From NCBI GenBank assembly GCA_031412575.1, contig JANODG010000088.1:1-50864 (forward strand): 50,864 bases of DNA, in the 5' to 3' direction. Every line of letters starts with the position of its first letter. Position 1 is the stretch's first letter. Under the pieces are notes generated by a model, which saw only the letters and a list, made by a program, of their open reading frames with translations, ran no database searches and was not told the DNA's origin. Origin of the DNA: Bdellovibrionales bacterium. Its GTDB lineage: Bacteria > Bdellovibrionota > Bdellovibrionia > Bdellovibrionales > UBA1609. Shown here piece after piece: positions 2,273 through 50,864 of this stretch. The position numbers and the translations under genes are program-made.

Positions 2273-4216
2273 TTAAAAATAATAATTAAGGTTTACCCCT
2301 AAACTTGTGGACTCAAGGTCTTTGGACTTTAGATAATCTGCATCCAATGAAATTGAAGAGCTTAAACTTTCAAAATAGTTTTGAAATCGCACTGAAGTTT
2401 GAATGATATTTTCAAAAGCGTTTGAAAAGTCAGTCACAAAAAGTGGTTTGGTTTCAAAAACTAAATTTGTATCTTGCCTCATATTATATTTAAATCCAAA
2501 AAGTGGTGCTACACCATAACGAGCCTTATTTTTAAATCGTCCATTCACCTCAAGGGTGTTAGAAACAAAAAAGTATAATAGCCATGAATCATCTTTAAAA
2601 AGGGATTTAGAAACACCACTGTCGAAGTTAATAAAACCGACCGTCTTGGTCCAATCTTTCAGATACTGTTCGGAATCTAATCCCATTTTAAATCGCCAAC
2701 TAAATTTAGACTCTAATTTATTAATAGGGGTAAATGACTCTACAGAAAGTATGTGCAAATAATTTAAAATTATTTCGTTATCTTTCGAAGAGTCCGTTAA
2801 GGATTGCCTTTCATTTAATAATATAGAAGTGTCTAAATAGTTCAGACCCAAATGCGGATTAAATCCTCGGTTTGAATCCAAAATGTCGTGAAATCCTAAC
2901 TTGTATTTTAAATTCAAACCGCCTTGTTTATAAACGTCGTTAAAATTCTGGGTCTTATATCCAAGACCAAATCGACGGGGTGGGTGAGATAAGTGCGGCG
3001 CATTTTTTAAATCCAAAGGCTTTACGGGATCAGGCGTAGACTTGGTCTGGCTTAATGCCAAAAGTAGGGGTTGTTTTTTTTTAAGTAGTGCGTCTTCATT
3101 GGCCACGTAATCATCAGCGTTTGTGTAGTCAAAATAAAGAAGTAAGGTTTTTAAAAAGTGAGGGTCAAAAGTTTTATCTTTCCAATTAATTCCTTTTTCT
3201 ACATTAAGGTCTTTTGTTAAAGACGTTAATGTTTTAATTTCGGAAGTATTAAGTAAATTAAATCTATCTAAAAGCTGTTGTCTTAAAGAGGGACGATATC
3301 TGATATTTTTTACCAAATCTTTCGATTTTAGCAAACTTTTAACTGTCTCTATGGGAACAACAAACGTACTACTAAAGTAATCGGCTAAATTAAGATCAGG
3401 TTTAATTGCTTCTAATACACGGATCGCCCAGTAGGAACAATTTTTATCTAAAAAGTAATACTTCGACCATGCAGACCCAAGCTCCCAGATGTGAAGGTTT
3501 AGGAATAGCATTTCTGCAGCGCTTAGGTTTAATTGATATTCCCATAAATCTCTGGACTCGTAGTCATTGTATTCTCGGACTTTGTAGTAAAACGGTGTAG
3601 CAGTAAATTCGCCAGGAAAAAATCCTAAAAGACCCTTTAAAGCGTAAAAGAATGCGTTTTTAGTGTCGACTGTGGCGGCGTAGTTAATGCCGTAATTTAA
3701 AAGATCTAAATCGTTAGATTCATCTTTATTTATTTTTAAGAATGTATGCCCAAAGGCTGATGAAGGATTATTAACAAAGTAACTTGAAAAAACCATGGAA
3801 GCCGATTGTCCTTGGAGTCGGTTCATAAATTCATTCATCTTTAAACATTTCGAAAAAATATTCATAGGAAATAGTTTAAGTTTTTGATTGATCCAAAAAA
3901 ATCGAGCAGGGAATCTACAAATGGGATGTTCATCATTAATTTGGGAGTCATCAGATTTGGTTTTTAAAATTTCAATAAAGCTTTGCAGTTCGATTAGGGG
4001 ATCTTTCAGACCTTGCTTCTTTAAAAAAAACTTTTGACTAAAAACTTCACTTTTATATTTATTCAAGCCTTTTTTTTCATAATAAAGAAGTCGAAGCCAT
4101 TCTTTCGAAAAAGCCAATTGATGATCATCATCTTTAGATTGTGCTAAGGCATTTGAAATTAACGATAGGTTAACAACGAAAAAAAATTTAATAAAAACTA
4201 AAAAAAAAAGTCTCAC
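2273..4216 (-). CDS. DUF4105-like (Lnb N-terminal domain) secreted protein with a probable beta-rich C-terminal half
   Basis: 647 aa with a GTG start and signal peptide ...SNALA/QS. The SSAFGHTFLKI motif is typical of DUF4105. The C-terminus ends in ...LNYYF, as in outer-membrane barrels. Confidence 0.5.
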   Translation of the reverse strand: MRLFFLVFIKFFFVVNLSLISNALAQSKDDDHQLAFSKEWLRLLYYEKKGLNKYKSEVFSQKFFLKKQGLKDPLIELQSFIEILKTKSDDSQINDEHPICRFPARFFWINQKLKLFPMNIFSKCLKMNEFMNRLQGQSASMVFSSYFVNNPSSAFGHTFLKINKDESNDLDLLNYGINYAATVDTKNAFFYALKGLLGFFPGEFTATPFYYKVREYNDYESRDLWEYQLNLSAAEMLFLNLHIWELGSAWSKYYFLDKNCSYWAIRVLEAIKPDLNLADYFSSTFVVPIETVKSLLKSKDLVKNIRYRPSLRQQLLDRFNLLNTSEIKTLTSLTKDLNVEKGINWKDKTFDPHFLKTLLLYFDYTNADDYVANEDALLKKKQPLLLALSQTKSTPDPVKPLDLKNAPHLSHPPRRFGLGYKTQNFNDVYKQGGLNLKYKLGFHDILDSNRGFNPHLGLNYLDTSILLNERQSLTDSSKDNEIILNYLHILSVESFTPINKLESKFSWRFKMGLDSEQYLKDWTKTVGFINFDSGVSKSLFKDDSWLLYFFVSNTLEVNGRFKNKARYGVAPLFGFKYNMRQDTNLVFETKPLFVTDFSNAFENIIQTSVRFQNYFESLSSSISLDADYLKSKDLESTSLGVNLNYYF

Positions 4217-22744: not shown

Positions 22745-23416
22745 ATGAAAAAGTCGCCTCATGTTTTTTTACTTGAAGATAACAAAGAGCTTGGACTTTC
22801 TTTACAAGATAAGTTTACAGACTCCGGGTACACATCAAGTTGGTTCACTCATGTTGGCCAAGCAAAAACGTATCAAAATTTTCAAGACATTGATTTATTT
22901 ATATTGGATGTGGGTTTGCCCGATGGAACAGGTTTTGAATTTGCAGAGTGGTTAAAATCTCAAAAGGTAAAACAACCCATTATGTTTTTAACAGCGATGG
23001 GGCAGCCCGAAGATCGCTTAAAGGGTTATGAGCTTGGTGCAGAGGAATATATTCCAAAGCCGTTTTTATATAAAGAATTAGAAATGCGTATTAATCATGT
23101 GTTAGAAAATCACGCCAAGAATTTAATTTTCGAATTTAAAGATTTAGTGATTGATTTTGAATCCATGACTTTTAAATGGAGTAATGGCGAAATTATTTTT
23201 CCACAGTCTAAAGATCTTTTAATTTTAAAACTTTTAATTCAGAAATCGCCACAAGTTATTTCTCGGGACGAGATCTTAAATGAAGTGTGGGGAATGGATG
23301 ATTTTCCTACGGAAAGAACTGTGGATAATAGCATTGTGAGGTTGAGGCAGAGTTTGAAGGAGCATCAAGGGTGTTTGAAGTCGGTGCGTGGGATGGGGTA
23401 TCAATGGCTGGTTTGA
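22745..23416 (+). CDS. OmpR-family response regulator
   Basis: Receiver domain with LFILDVGLPDG and a winged-helix C-terminus (...VRLRQSL...VRGMGYQW). A 2-nt gap follows the kinase gene. Confidence 0.9.
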   Translation: MKKSPHVFLLEDNKELGLSLQDKFTDSGYTSSWFTHVGQAKTYQNFQDIDLFILDVGLPDGTGFEFAEWLKSQKVKQPIMFLTAMGQPEDRLKGYELGAEEYIPKPFLYKELEMRINHVLENHAKNLIFEFKDLVIDFESMTFKWSNGEIIFPQSKDLLILKLLIQKSPQVISRDEILNEVWGMDDFPTERTVDNSIVRLRQSLKEHQGCLKSVRGMGYQWLV

Positions 23417-23581
23417 TTTTTTGGTATCTTATTTTAATGAAAGTTTAATCTTCTTAAATTCCGACACGCCCATCCATGGGCTCTGCGCGAGCCGCCTGCG
23501 GCGGGCGCATCCTGCTCTCGCGAGGTCGGAATTTAAGAAGATTAAACTTTCATTAAAATAAGATTCCAAAAAATCAAACCA
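23409..23581. repeat. 173-bp near-perfect palindrome: 57-bp AT-rich arms (one mismatch) around a 59-bp GC-rich core
   Basis: Arm 23409-23465 is the reverse complement of 23525-23581, apart from T/A at one position. The core 23466-23524 contains CCGCC-TGC-GGCGG. On the minus strand this is the same GCCCGC-NGCA-GGCGG hairpin seen in the repeat family below. The left arm covers the last codons and stop of the response regulator. Confidence 0.9.
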
Positions 23582-23810
23582 AACGTGTGTATGGTTTATA
23601 CTTAGGATTTATTTTTTTATTAATTGTGTAGGTGAGTAGGATTTTAAAATAAGTAACTAAATATGTAAGTAAGTAAGTTAGTAAAAATTTAATTAATTGT
23701 TTAAAAATTTATTGGTTTTTTTTATTTATTAAAAAGATATTTTTTTAAAATTATTTGAAAATTTAAGGATATTAAAGCCTTGTTTTTGTGTGTTTAAGAA
23801 GGGAAGTCAG

Positions 23811-24830
23811 ATGAATTTGAAGTTTCAGGGTGCGTTGAGGAATGAGGTGCAGAAGTGTCCGCCGATTTGGTTTATGAGGCAGGCAGGAAGATATCATGGG
23901 CATTATCAGAATTTGAGATCGAAGCATTCCTTTATGGATTTGTGTAAGGTGCCGGAGTTGGCTTGCGAAGTGGCTTTGGGTCCTATTATGGATTTTGATT
24001 TTGATGTTTCTATTTTGTTTTCGGATTTACTTTTTCCGCTAGAAGCTATGGGTATGGGGCTTGATTATAAGCCAGGTCCTGTATTGGGATGGCATTTAAA
24101 TGCTTCGAACATACATAAATTAAAATCTGTTGAAGATTCTTTGGCTGGTGTTCAATTTCAAAAAGAGGCCGTCGTGTTAACTCGAAGAGCTTTACCTAAA
24201 GATAAAAGTCTTGTGGGTTTTGTCGGAGGGCCTTGGACTTTATTTAGTTATGCGGTCGAAGGAAGTCATAAAGATGGTTTAAAACAAACTAAAAAGTCTT
24301 TGGCCTTATTTAATCCTTTTTGTGAAAAATTACTTCCGCTTTTGATTGAAAACATCAAACTGCAATTAGCGGGTGGGGTTGAAGTGGTTATGATGTTTGA
24401 TACGTCTGTGGGTGAAATTAGCCCCTATATTTTTAAAGCTTACATTGAACCTGTGCTTTTAGGTTTAGCTCAAAAGTTTCCAGGTAAGTTAGGGTATTAC
24501 TCTAAAGGCACGACTGAGGCGCATTATTCGGTAGAACTAAAAAATGCGCCATGGGCTGGATTTGGATTTGATCACCGGTGGGATTTACCGAAGTGGTTAA
24601 AGACTGAAAAAAAGAAAGGTTTTGTTCAGGGTAATTTTGATCAGTTGTTTTTATTTCAAGATTTTTCTGACTTTAAAAAAACTTTGGACCAATATTTAAA
24701 AACTTACCAAGATATTTCTGTAGAGGCCCGTGCCGGATGGGTGTGTGCTTTAGGGCACGGTGTCCTTCCTGAAACTCCAGAAAAAAACGTTAAATACTTT
24801 GTCGAGCGCGTTAGAGAGGTGCTTTCATGA
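23811..24830 (+). CDS. hemE: uroporphyrinogen decarboxylase
   Basis: PPIWFMRQAGRY signature. The start is set at the ATG at 23811 (GGGAAG RBS). The ORF is open from the GTG at 23790. Confidence 0.92.
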   Translation: MNLKFQGALRNEVQKCPPIWFMRQAGRYHGHYQNLRSKHSFMDLCKVPELACEVALGPIMDFDFDVSILFSDLLFPLEAMGMGLDYKPGPVLGWHLNASNIHKLKSVEDSLAGVQFQKEAVVLTRRALPKDKSLVGFVGGPWTLFSYAVEGSHKDGLKQTKKSLALFNPFCEKLLPLLIENIKLQLAGGVEVVMMFDTSVGEISPYIFKAYIEPVLLGLAQKFPGKLGYYSKGTTEAHYSVELKNAPWAGFGFDHRWDLPKWLKTEKKKGFVQGNFDQLFLFQDFSDFKKTLDQYLKTYQDISVEARAGWVCALGHGVLPETPEKNVKYFVERVREVLS

Positions 24831-49257: not shown

Positions 49258-50169
49258 ATGAGTTTAAGCCTAAAAAAAGCCCTCAGTAGCTTTGCATTCC
49301 TCCTTGGGATAAAGCTTTTAGTCTTAAACTTCGCAAGCGCAGAAACTGCGGACTCGTACATCATTCCTACAGACTCACAAAGTGTGAGATCAAGAGCTGA
49401 GTACTCAATTTACCGCACCGGTGAATATCCAATCGGGGGCGCAACATCCGAAGAAATCACAATAGCTAAAAGAAGATTTCCAATGAACACCGTCGAAGGC
49501 CGTACAGAGCTGATTCAACTTTATCCAAGATTCAATACACGTGCTGGATTTTGCGGAAGCTATGTTTACTCTGGACCAGAAAACGTTGTTGAAGAATCAT
49601 TTGCCCACCCGGTAACTGCCTGTGTGATTACAAGACTTGCTGAAGAATGGAGAAAAAACTTCTGTCCGTCGAACAGACCATGCCGCCTTGAAATGGGAGA
49701 TATCGCACATCATACAGAGCCAGACTTTGATGGTCATAGCACTCATGATGATGGTTATTGTATTGATCTTAGACCAATAAAAACAGAAGGCGAGGGCGAG
49801 CGCGCTTTATCTAATCCTGATTACACCGGCGCATTAACCCATGAAGATCCAAATTATGATCAAGCAAAAACTAGACAGCTTTTAGGTTTAATTACACGTT
49901 TAGGTGGAGACACCTTAAAATCTAGTGACGAACAACCGGATACTTTAATATTTAATGATCCAGATTTAATTGAAGAAGGCATTGCAAGAAGAGCCGAAGA
50001 TCACGACAACCACATACATGTTTGTTTTCGTCCAGAAAATCCATTAGTTCAAAAATCATGTGCCGAATACACCCCAGACGAAAAATTATGTCCAACTGCT
50101 GGAGTTTTATTCAATCATCCAGTAATGTCTGATAAAGTAAAGGAGTTAAATGAAACTCTTAGCCAATAA
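49258..50169 (+). CDS. secreted LAS-superfamily zinc peptidase (MepA/M74-like murein endopeptidase candidate)
   Basis: Signal peptide ...FASA/ET. It has HSTHDDGYCIDL (H-x(n)-D) and the DHDNHIHVCF (HxH) metal-ligand pattern. The ORF is open from the TTG at 49243. Confidence 0.5.
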   Translation: MSLSLKKALSSFAFLLGIKLLVLNFASAETADSYIIPTDSQSVRSRAEYSIYRTGEYPIGGATSEEITIAKRRFPMNTVEGRTELIQLYPRFNTRAGFCGSYVYSGPENVVEESFAHPVTACVITRLAEEWRKNFCPSNRPCRLEMGDIAHHTEPDFDGHSTHDDGYCIDLRPIKTEGEGERALSNPDYTGALTHEDPNYDQAKTRQLLGLITRLGGDTLKSSDEQPDTLIFNDPDLIEEGIARRAEDHDNHIHVCFRPENPLVQKSCAEYTPDEKLCPTAGVLFNHPVMSDKVKELNETLSQ

Positions 50170-50725
50170 TCAAAACAAAAAAAATCATAAGGTCAAAGTA
50201 ATGATAGCACTTCTTCTAACACTACTACTTCAAACACCTTTTGCCTTAGCAAAACAGATCACTTCACCCACTTGTGATGGCGTGAAGGGCCTAAAAGTCT
50301 TTTCAGATTATACACCCGAAGGCACACCATTTATTCGTAAAGTCATTACCAATTTATTTAATGCCTTCGACGACGATCACAATTTCAATCATCTCATCAT
50401 TGACACAACAAAATTTAAATCAGGTAATATCGAAATTACTTTCGAAACCTTAAACAAAGAAAACAAACCCATCAAAAAAACAGTCTTAAAAAATTGGATC
50501 ACTGACAAAAAATTTCCAAATCAAAAAATTTCAAAAATTGCAGTTTCAAAAATCATAAAAAATAATCTTTCACAACTTCACGACAAATACATCAACCTCA
50601 CCAAAGAGCAAAAAGCCAACACAAACATGACCAAAATTCCATTCAACGGCAAATTCTATATATCTCAAAAAAACAAACCCGCGTTCTGCATCTTCGACTT
50701 CAAGTACGCCTACAAGTACCAATAA
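50150..50725 (+). CDS. hypothetical secreted protein
   Basis: 191 aa with an AAGGAG RBS 5 nt upstream. It overlaps the previous gene by 20 nt. The hydrophobic signal segment is MIALLLTLLLQTPFALA/KQ. Confidence 0.5.
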   Translation: MKLLANNQNKKNHKVKVMIALLLTLLLQTPFALAKQITSPTCDGVKGLKVFSDYTPEGTPFIRKVITNLFNAFDDDHNFNHLIIDTTKFKSGNIEITFETLNKENKPIKKTVLKNWITDKKFPNQKISKIAVSKIIKNNLSQLHDKYINLTKEQKANTNMTKIPFNGKFYISQKNKPAFCIFDFKYAYKYQ

Positions 50726-50864
50726 CAACCGCCCCAACAACCCAGCCGCCTCATTTAATTTAAACCCAAATTTTTAAATCCTTTATTCTTAAATATGAAA
50801 GTTTTATTTATCGTCAAAAATATTATTAAAAGGGATTTGCACTTCAAAAATAAGTTCGGCTTGG

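Follow-up and report, generated by a model that had tools for sequence, protein, structure and literature searches.

Strand-skewed and codon-shifted flanks of a long palindrome between a response regulator gene and hemE in a Bdellovibrionales genome

Between an OmpR-type response regulator gene and hemE, in a contig of a Bdellovibrionales genome (JANODG010000088.1, assembly GCA_031412575.1; we refer to the whole analysed stretch of 50,864 nt as the window), lies a 173-bp palindrome, and on both sides of it the plus strand is rich in G and T and poor in C. This raises the question of how one strand-specific bias came to run through the end of one gene, an untranslated spacer and the beginning of another gene. 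A first-pass annotation, made from the letters of the window, had taken the tract for a local mutational or recombinational footprint and not for selection on one gene. Our analysis supports that view, except that a donor for gene conversion was not found in the genome; the skew itself is confirmed, yet the locus is one instance of a pattern found at long palindromes genome-wide and not a one-off. We favour, with modest confidence, the reading that the tract is a lineage-specific and strand-specific mutational footprint caused by the hairpin-forming palindrome. The features of the locus are as follows.

22745..23416, plus strand: OmpR-type response regulator gene (Pfam Response_reg, E 4e-18; Trans_reg_C, E 1e-17), with its stop codon within the left arm of the palindrome
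23282..23416, plus strand: tract, left part: ~45 codons at the end of the regulator, now G- or T-ending with the protein kept (third positions A 6, G 19, C 1, T 14)
23409..23581, no strand assigned: palindrome of 173 bp with 57-bp AT-rich arms, from opposite-strand self-alignment
23582..23810, plus strand: AT-rich, C-depleted untranslated spacer up to the hemE ATG, not present at orthologous loci
23811..24110, plus strand: tract, right part: ~100 codons at the start of hemE, G- or T-ending and weakening with distance, from codon counts
23811..24830, plus strand: hemE, uroporphyrinogen decarboxylase (Pfam URO-D, E 1e-79); the ATG at 23811 agrees with the N-termini of orthologues, and the mechanical open reading frame begins upstream of it, at GTG 23790

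Skew and codon shift on both sides of the palindrome

The tract (23282-24120, 839 bp) has a GC skew of +0.37 and an AT skew of -0.12. The genome (G000, in which the window is contig C88) is a metagenome bin of 3.0 Mb in 254 contigs, and among its 6784 segments of 839 nt the 99.9th percentile of absolute GC skew is 0.317, which places the tract far outside normal genomic variance; a 400-nt segment starting at 23601, with a skew of 0.54, ranks second in the genome by extremity. The first-pass description of a C-depleted, G/T-rich tract on both sides of the palindrome, drawn from hand counts, is therefore borne out. On recount its 27 G and 5 C at 23341-23400 and its 32 G and 25 C in the first 130 nt of hemL were exact, its 16 C at 23811-23940 were right but are accompanied by 40 rather than 41 G, and its "about 6 C" for 23581-23790 came within one base of the 5 C counted here.

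Codon shift was measured at third positions as G/(A+G) and C/(C+T), with genes called genome-wide by longest-open-reading-frame heuristics. Regulator codons 179-224 have a G/(A+G) of 0.76 and a C/(C+T) of 0.07, compared with 0.28-0.35 and 0.17-0.26 in the earlier codons. On the other side of the palindrome the values are 0.86 and 0.06 in hemE codons 0-50, 0.53 and 0.07 in codons 50-100, and 0.26-0.40 and 0.13-0.36 thereafter, so that the bias crosses the gene boundaries and fades inside hemE, and the third-position counts agree with the earlier claim that the shift covers the end of the regulator and about the first 100 codons of hemE. Genome-wide, G/(A+G) has a mean of 0.32, a standard deviation of 0.12 and a 99.9th percentile of 0.857 (49,522 segments of 45 codons). 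The combination of a G/(A+G) of at least 0.75 with a C/(C+T) of at most 0.10 occurs in 6 of 49,249 such segments when high-GC contigs are excluded: three lie in hemE, two in a gene beside another palindrome of the same family and one on contig C197. As separate observations, two top-ranking stretches of G- and T-rich third positions, C197:2923-3261 and C117:702-3407 (codons 390-450), had no adjoining long palindrome detected, the former having only a 27-bp palindrome at 3381-3407, and twelve contigs of 1.5-2.8 kb (C56, C62, C110, C114, C119, C135, C213, C222, C237, C239, C243 and C245) have 51-68% GC; with GC-rich codon usage on both strands in a genome of 37% GC, these twelve are probably contamination of the bin.

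The direction of change was read against orthologues in four genomes of the same genus, the ancestral state being that on which at least three of the four agree; DNA identity within the genus is ~72-78% and synonymous sites are fairly saturated, so the polarised counts are parsimony estimates. Orthologues without the palindrome do not share the composition, a possibility that would have told against the footprint: in the four genomes the regulator tails have a G/(A+G) of 0.37-0.50 and a C/(C+T) of 0.30-0.57, and the first 100 codons of hemE 0.21-0.36 and 0.20-0.36. At third positions, A>G changes were found at 18 of 26 sites in the tract compared with 24 of 158 in the sequence taken as outside, namely hemN and what remains of the regulator and hemE (p = 4e-8, Fisher tests here and below), whereas the reverse change, G>A, was found at 0 of 15 and 14 of 62 sites, T>C at 3 of 39 and 39 of 201, and C>T at 2 of 2 and 11 of 27, respectively. 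First and second codon positions follow the same direction, with A>G at 7 of 76 sites in the tract versus 12 of 509 outside (p = 0.007). Within the hemE portion, 13 A>G and no G>A changes were counted among 54 polarisable synonymous sites, and the replacements toward G-rich codons include N7G, K10R and K30G, while the regulator tail still aligns with its orthologues despite the recoding. By parsimony, these counts show that on the plus strand around the element A was replaced by G, and C was lost, in the G000 lineage, in keeping with the A-to-G excess proposed earlier, and that the change reached silent sites and, more weakly, amino-acid-changing ones.

Since the genome is a metagenome bin, with a word depth of ~5.4 at the locus, and the only sequencing run that holds the stretch is its probable source run, an assembly or sequencing error near the hairpin has to be considered. 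Both flanks are identical (0 differences) in the contigs of a second assembler, which however worked from the same run. Moreover, the changes follow the reading frame (the 18 of 26 third-position A against the 7 of 76 at first and second positions) and the protein is conserved, as errors would not arrange, and the pattern recurs at ~60 loci. We regard an artefact as hardly credible.

Alternatively, the regulator tail, palindrome and hemE start may have been recombined from a diverged strain, or converted from another copy, and would then carry the composition of the donor. The limits of the tract are fairly sharp, it spans both genes and the element and it is lineage-specific; the published skew repeats called GRINS are also associated with gene conversion, in the part of their description drawn on here (PMC8256042). 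However, when the two halves of the tract were searched against the whole genome by BLASTN, they matched the tract alone, no ordinary donor would have G- and T-ending but not C-ending codons, and the four relatives in the genus do not have them. The bias also recurs at dozens of unrelated palindrome loci and fades with distance, which one import cannot explain, and we consider this origin very unlikely.

Long palindromes and their flanks across the genome

Self-comparison of the contigs by BLAST, which may over-extend some palindromes through composition alone, identified 124 local palindromes, of which 79 are at least 100 bp long (100-731 bp). Their cores form clusters of 32, 13, 8, 7, 4, 3 and 2 members plus 10 singletons, and the copy in the window belongs to the largest, cluster 0, by the following feature.

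23462..23528, plus strand: GC-rich asymmetric core, a shortened family member, with BLAST matches to at least 13 other loci

Other copies of this family have a ~112-nt core, conserved outer boxes and a total length of 229-731 bp, with AT-rich arms that are complementary within a copy and unlike between copies. The copy in the window shares the core and has arms of its own, and is a short form, in which a fuzzy search found only the right core box and none of the outer conserved boxes; these boxes were also found with other cores and at contig ends. As single-stranded DNA it is predicted to fold at -75 kcal/mol (z = -16.9 against shuffles). Its minus strand at 23421-23569 resembles the Rfam RNA TwoAYGGAY (RF01731) in having a long stem around a small AUGGAU-loop hairpin, on which the match is centred, but the score of 31.3 bits falls short of the gathering score of 43, and among 13 other copies one (L013:1033-1228) scored 29.5 bits and 12 gave no match; a plant microRNA match in Rfam was discarded as a spurious product of the long hairpin. 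Palindrome arms often extend over the end of an adjoining gene, covering its last codons and its stop (for example C229:12176-12906, C238:3600-4233 and C187:6899-7517), and many contigs terminate in palindromes. The idea that convergent gene tails within the 731-bp palindrome encode the same peptide was rejected, as the peptides differ. The outer parts of some palindromes are perhaps extended by composition.

For 64 palindromes the flanks could be classed by the sign of top-strand GC skew in 250 nt to the left and right, with a threshold of 0.15. The class with negative left and positive right skew ('-+') has 12 members, '-0' 18, '0+' 14, '00' 8, '++' 9, '0-' 2 and '--' 1, and '+-' and '+0' have none. 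Thus 44 of the 64 have an outward-reading strand that is rich in G in at least one flank; among random positions 57% are '00' and 0.8% '-+'. Codon usage in the adjoining genes shows the same mirror arrangement. Genes with their 3' end toward a palindrome (n = 105) have a C/(C+T) of 0.56 in the nearest 60 codons compared with 0.35 farther away, and genes with their 5' end toward it (n = 30) a G/(A+G) of 0.43 compared with 0.25. With the window locus excluded, successive blocks of 25 codons give C/(C+T) values of 0.65, 0.54, 0.48, 0.44, 0.41, 0.36 and 0.35 (n = 104) and G/(A+G) values of 0.48, 0.37, 0.40, 0.29, 0.33, 0.30, 0.26 and 0.25 (n = 29), a decay over ~125-150 codons (~400 nt) that genes and spacers share. 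Conversely, of 70 genes whose 3' ends are rich in C and poor in G, 33 have a long palindrome no more than 300 nt away, compared with 85 of 1783 genes overall; a further 15 of the 70 adjoin contig ends, and two of five leftover cases inspected contain hairpins absent from the palindrome screen. G-ending starts and C-ending ends as a general feature of genes were considered and rejected, since the shifts averaged over all genes are small (0.31 to 0.37 and 0.325 to 0.359).

A further example is purH, which starts 14 nt from a 512-bp palindrome and has a G/(A+G) of 0.77 and a C/(C+T) of 0.16 in its first 75 codons, compared with 0.24-0.39 and 0.21-0.41 in the four orthologues. Two other segments stand beside the present locus among the most extreme GC skews of the genome. 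The first in rank (-0.61, C3:14401-15117) flanks a 298-bp singleton palindrome at C3:14820-15117, and the third (-0.52) is at 50401-50800 in the window itself, at the contig end, where the last gene (50150-50725) has a tract of C-ending codons at its 3' end. To judge from the skew at 50150-50800, a further palindrome probably lies just past the end of the window.

The locus in the window departs from the mirror arrangement. Its right flank, with a skew of 0.73, is the most extreme of the 64, and its left flank, at +0.37, is the strongest that breaks the mirror rule. The same strand is G-rich on both sides at ~17 loci, the window included, which are mostly '++' when oriented by the core. At 13 of these 17 the sign of the local skew equals that of the contig-wide GC skew (one-sided p = 0.025), although neither the association with core orientation nor that with contig skew is independent of gene orientation, and the contigs behind them are small. 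The contig-wide skew of the window without the locus is 0.018, compared with 0.37-0.73 locally, and the tract ends within 1 kb.

These polarities bear on the possibility of chemical damage, in which an exposed plus strand, either the lagging-strand template at a stalled fork or a strand displaced by an RNA-DNA hybrid, would be deaminated, cytosine to uracil and adenine to hypoxanthine, and so accumulate C>T and A>G changes. Deamination produces the same changes on the heavy strand of vertebrate mitochondrial DNA. The loss of C and the A>G change on one and the same strand in the window fit this explanation, as does the agreement in sign at 13 of the 17 same-strand loci, and strand-asymmetric C>N and A>N changes occur on the single-stranded side of human breaks, in the portion of that study considered here (Hinch et al. 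2023, PMC7615360). At the majority, mirror-type loci, however, only A>G appears on the outward strand, where C>T should dominate, and the coding-strand G/(A+G) of genes with their 3' end toward a palindrome is nearly flat (0.24 near, 0.25 farther). Nor is the outward strand the one that normal 5'-3' resection leaves single-stranded, as far as that source describes it (PMC7615360). Damage of this kind seems to us a distinctly unlikely cause.

The spacer between the palindrome and hemE behaves differently from the coding flanks. At 23581-23790 it contains 5 C, 32 G, 75 A and 98 T, so that C is depleted with no gain of G over A (G/(A+G) = 0.30). The distance from the regulator to the hemE ATG is 394 nt here, compared with 11 (G001), 47 (G002), 66 (G004) and 237 nt in the fourth genome of the genus. 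The loss of C without gain of G may reflect a remnant outer arm, a younger age or constraint; the C-free spacer may in part be left over from the outer arm of a formerly longer palindrome. Homology of the spacer to other C-free flanks was rejected, as its matches are only low-complexity AT-rich sequence.

Relatives, selection and the mutational reading

Palindromes in the relatives provide a natural control. The sister species G003 has an unlike-looking 235-bp palindrome in the same regulator-hemE spacer (L017, G003:C4) and a 175-bp palindrome ~220 nt upstream of purH (L077), and neither locus shows a codon skew. The closer relatives G001 and G004 have no palindrome at either site, and therefore either repeated insertion, or ancestral presence followed by loss, could account for G003 and G000 having palindromes at the same two sites. 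Nine further loci were examined in G003, eight of which have a long palindrome of its own family (198-293 bp), and outward-G flanks were found at 0 of the 8 (five are '+0' or '0-', two '00' and one '--'). G004 carries one complete copy of the core family of the window, also with unskewed flanks. A long palindrome alone is thus not sufficient and a lineage factor is needed, and the G003 control favours mutation bias over selection on nucleotide content, without proving it.

Selection at the level of RNA nevertheless deserves attention, because the setting invites it. The gene order is hemL-like aminotransferase, kinase, regulator, hemE, radical-SAM hemN and hemY-like oxidase; the kinase-regulator-hemE-hemN order is kept in relatives, and the ancestral spacer was tiny (the 11 nt of G001), so that the palindrome and a 230-nt untranslated spacer would have entered a tightly packed operon. 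C-poor, G-rich flanks might then resist the loading of Rho, avoid G-C pairing, permit read-through and keep the ribosome site of hemE open, while at convergent gene pairs C-rich 3' ends would serve to load Rho and so end transcription ahead of the hairpin. Rho is present in G000, and the regulator tail and hemE head are G-rich and C-poor by a composition score alone for Rho-loading (rut) and anti-rut character. A scan of 23250-23900 found no consensus promoter on the plus strand and no terminator, its one promoter-like site being on the minus strand and below the number in shuffles, so that hemE may depend on read-through. Gene ends running into palindromes are mostly C-rich and G-poor, like a Rho loading site, and G-rich 3' ends occur at 7 of 24 upstream genes of co-directional pairs compared with 7 of 64 gene ends of convergent pairs, a difference between co-transcribed and convergent pairs that this explanation would account for. 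Yet the G003 palindromes, among them the one in the same spacer, and the G004 copy lack such flanks, and convergent pairs, which have no need of read-through, also have some G-rich 3' ends. C-rich 3' ends are not general, with the all-gene average rising only from 0.325 to 0.359, the amino-acid changes and the smooth decay over ~400 nt are hard to fit to a Rho site of ~80 nt, and the sign at same-strand loci tracks the contig-wide skew in 13 of 17 cases. We judge selection of this kind to be unlikely, if worth keeping in view.

A neutral process anchored at palindromes, rather than selection on either gene, is indicated because silent and some non-silent A>G changes and the loss of C fall on one strand and decay over ~400 nt, and because the bias ignores gene boundaries, recurs at dozens of unrelated loci and is absent in relatives. 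If the tract is a footprint of the palindrome, a possible course of events is that the palindrome folds during replication and stalls the polymerase, and that the adjoining DNA is re-made repeatedly by gap-filling or restart synthesis that evades mismatch correction. If G were mis-inserted opposite template T, the new strand would acquire A>G changes. The mirror pattern of most loci would follow if the strand synthesised anew were, on each side, the one that leads 5' to 3' away from the palindrome, while in the window and at ~16 other loci a single nascent strand might be gapped across the element, with both flanks affected on that one strand; for these same-strand loci the lagging-strand template may instead have been exposed for long.

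Repair functions of the genome are relevant here. Neither SbcD nor SbcC was found in G000, a 98%-complete genome, and SbcD exceeded its family cut-off in 0 of 25 genomes of the order, a finding in keeping with the persistence of long palindromes and unfavourable to the idea that cleavage by SbcCD is the trigger. G000 encodes Rho, MutS, MutL, RecG and one Y-family polymerase. Two weak frames with a Y1 (IS200/RAYT-type) transposase domain, just over the Pfam cut-off (C123:4086-4358 and C3:2876-3148), are, from their domain matches, candidate enzymes acting on the hairpin repeats.

Several points weigh against reading the tract as a footprint of hairpin DNA. The enzymological steps are all deduced from the polarity and the fading with distance. 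In G003 both orthologous sites have palindromes yet no skew, so an extra lineage factor must be assumed, and MutS and MutL are present. The left flank in the window opposes the majority mirror pattern, more strongly than any other of the 64, and needs a second sub-mechanism. The spacer, though next to the palindrome, has no G enrichment, which is not well explained, since a purely distance-dependent A>G pressure predicts otherwise unless the spacer is young or constrained. Mismatches between arms (127 A/G, 109 C/T and 439 transversions) show no excess of purine transitions, though they lie mostly in poorly aligned outer arms and this test is uninformative. The majority polarity is opposite to that of single-strand damage after resection at human breaks, as the consulted portion of that work presents it (PMC7615360), and the genome is a metagenome assembly of low depth at the locus. 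The wider proposal, that this lineage has a hairpin-triggered, strand-specific A>G mutator that has recoded ~400 nt on each side of ~80 palindromes with a polarity opposite to classical resection damage, we put forward tentatively, as a possibility on which we would not yet rely.

Comparison with known systems

In the limited full-text library searched, we found no description of skewed flanks of bacterial palindromes. Bacterial chromosomes have replication-associated GC and TA skew, and vertebrate mitochondrial DNA has a gradient that follows the time spent single-stranded. The tract resembles these in its excess of G over C and of T over A on one strand, and the signs agree at 13 of 17 same-strand loci; it differs in that chromosomal skew is here ~0.02-0.07 over megabases, while the tract reaches 0.37-0.73, is shorter than 1 kb and has a repeat at its centre. 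Replication skew is low in amplitude, constant along a replichore and switches at origin and terminus, and the tract shows none of this behaviour. In Escherichia coli without RecG, the repair of a double-strand break induced in the chromosome can set off divergent synthesis, according to the part of that report used here (PMC4752480); RecG is present in G000.

Comparable in outline are yeast inverted repeats, which can form hairpins or cruciforms and raise mutation in genes on both sides in a distance-dependent manner, an effect ascribed to long single-stranded regions and faulty re-synthesis in the portion of the study consulted (Saini et al. 2013, PMC3681665). The arrangement of an inverted repeat with mutated flanks on both sides and a dependence on distance is shared with our locus. 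The yeast results, as given there, come from a reporter assay in a eukaryote, with a reach of 8 kb and a dependence on breakage and Pol zeta, whereas G000 presents an evolutionary footprint of ~0.4 kb in a bacterium, with a defined strand polarity and an A>G spectrum, in which SbcCD was not found (PMC3681665). Human meiotic break hotspots likewise show a mirror strand asymmetry that includes A>G and has a limited reach, but in the account available to us the changes fall on the strand exposed by resection, the forward strand to the left of the break (PMC7615360). At the majority of G000 loci the strand with A>G leaves the centre, the opposite polarity, and only the left flank in the window fits the human pattern as that source gives it (PMC7615360).

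The skew islands described here have a visible anchor in the long palindrome, a decay over ~125-150 codons, a defined polarity and a sister species that has palindromes without islands, and together these properties make it possible to test at which step of replication or repair the G000 and G003 lineages differ. The islands indicate that a repeat element can alter the codon choice, and some of the residues, of housekeeping genes beside it (hemE and purH are examples), a point of importance wherever codon bias is taken to signal expression level or horizontal transfer. Dozens of palindromes, the longest of 731 bp, can moreover persist in lineages without detected SbcCD. If the mutator proposal is true, the genome is a natural record of structure-induced mutagenesis in bacteria.

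The closest published match to the tract is the class of repeats called GRINS, whose definition, in the part of their description drawn on here, asks for a length above 500 bp, duplication of another region at over 80% identity, and mean absolute GC and TA skews that each exceed 0.15 and are correlated (PMC8256042). Both are local, with an intense GC skew and an accompanying TA skew that give G+T-rich or C+A-rich stretches, and both lie within working genes, where the effect is strongest at third positions and amino acids shift toward those with G- or T-rich codons (PMC8256042). The tract, at 839 bp with a GC skew of 0.37, exceeds the GRINS thresholds of length and GC skew and shows the third-position and amino-acid shift; its TA skew has the sign of its GC skew and is +0.12 over the whole tract and +0.19 at 23790-24120, values taken over longer segments than the 150-nt windows used for GRINS. 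It differs in lacking the second copy that the definition requires, by BLASTN against the whole genome, and in being anchored on a palindrome with a fade over ~400 nt, whereas GRINS are described, in that part of the source, without a central palindrome or gradient (PMC8256042). Were the mutator proposal to hold, it could offer a mechanistic origin for the GRINS skew islands of other phyla.

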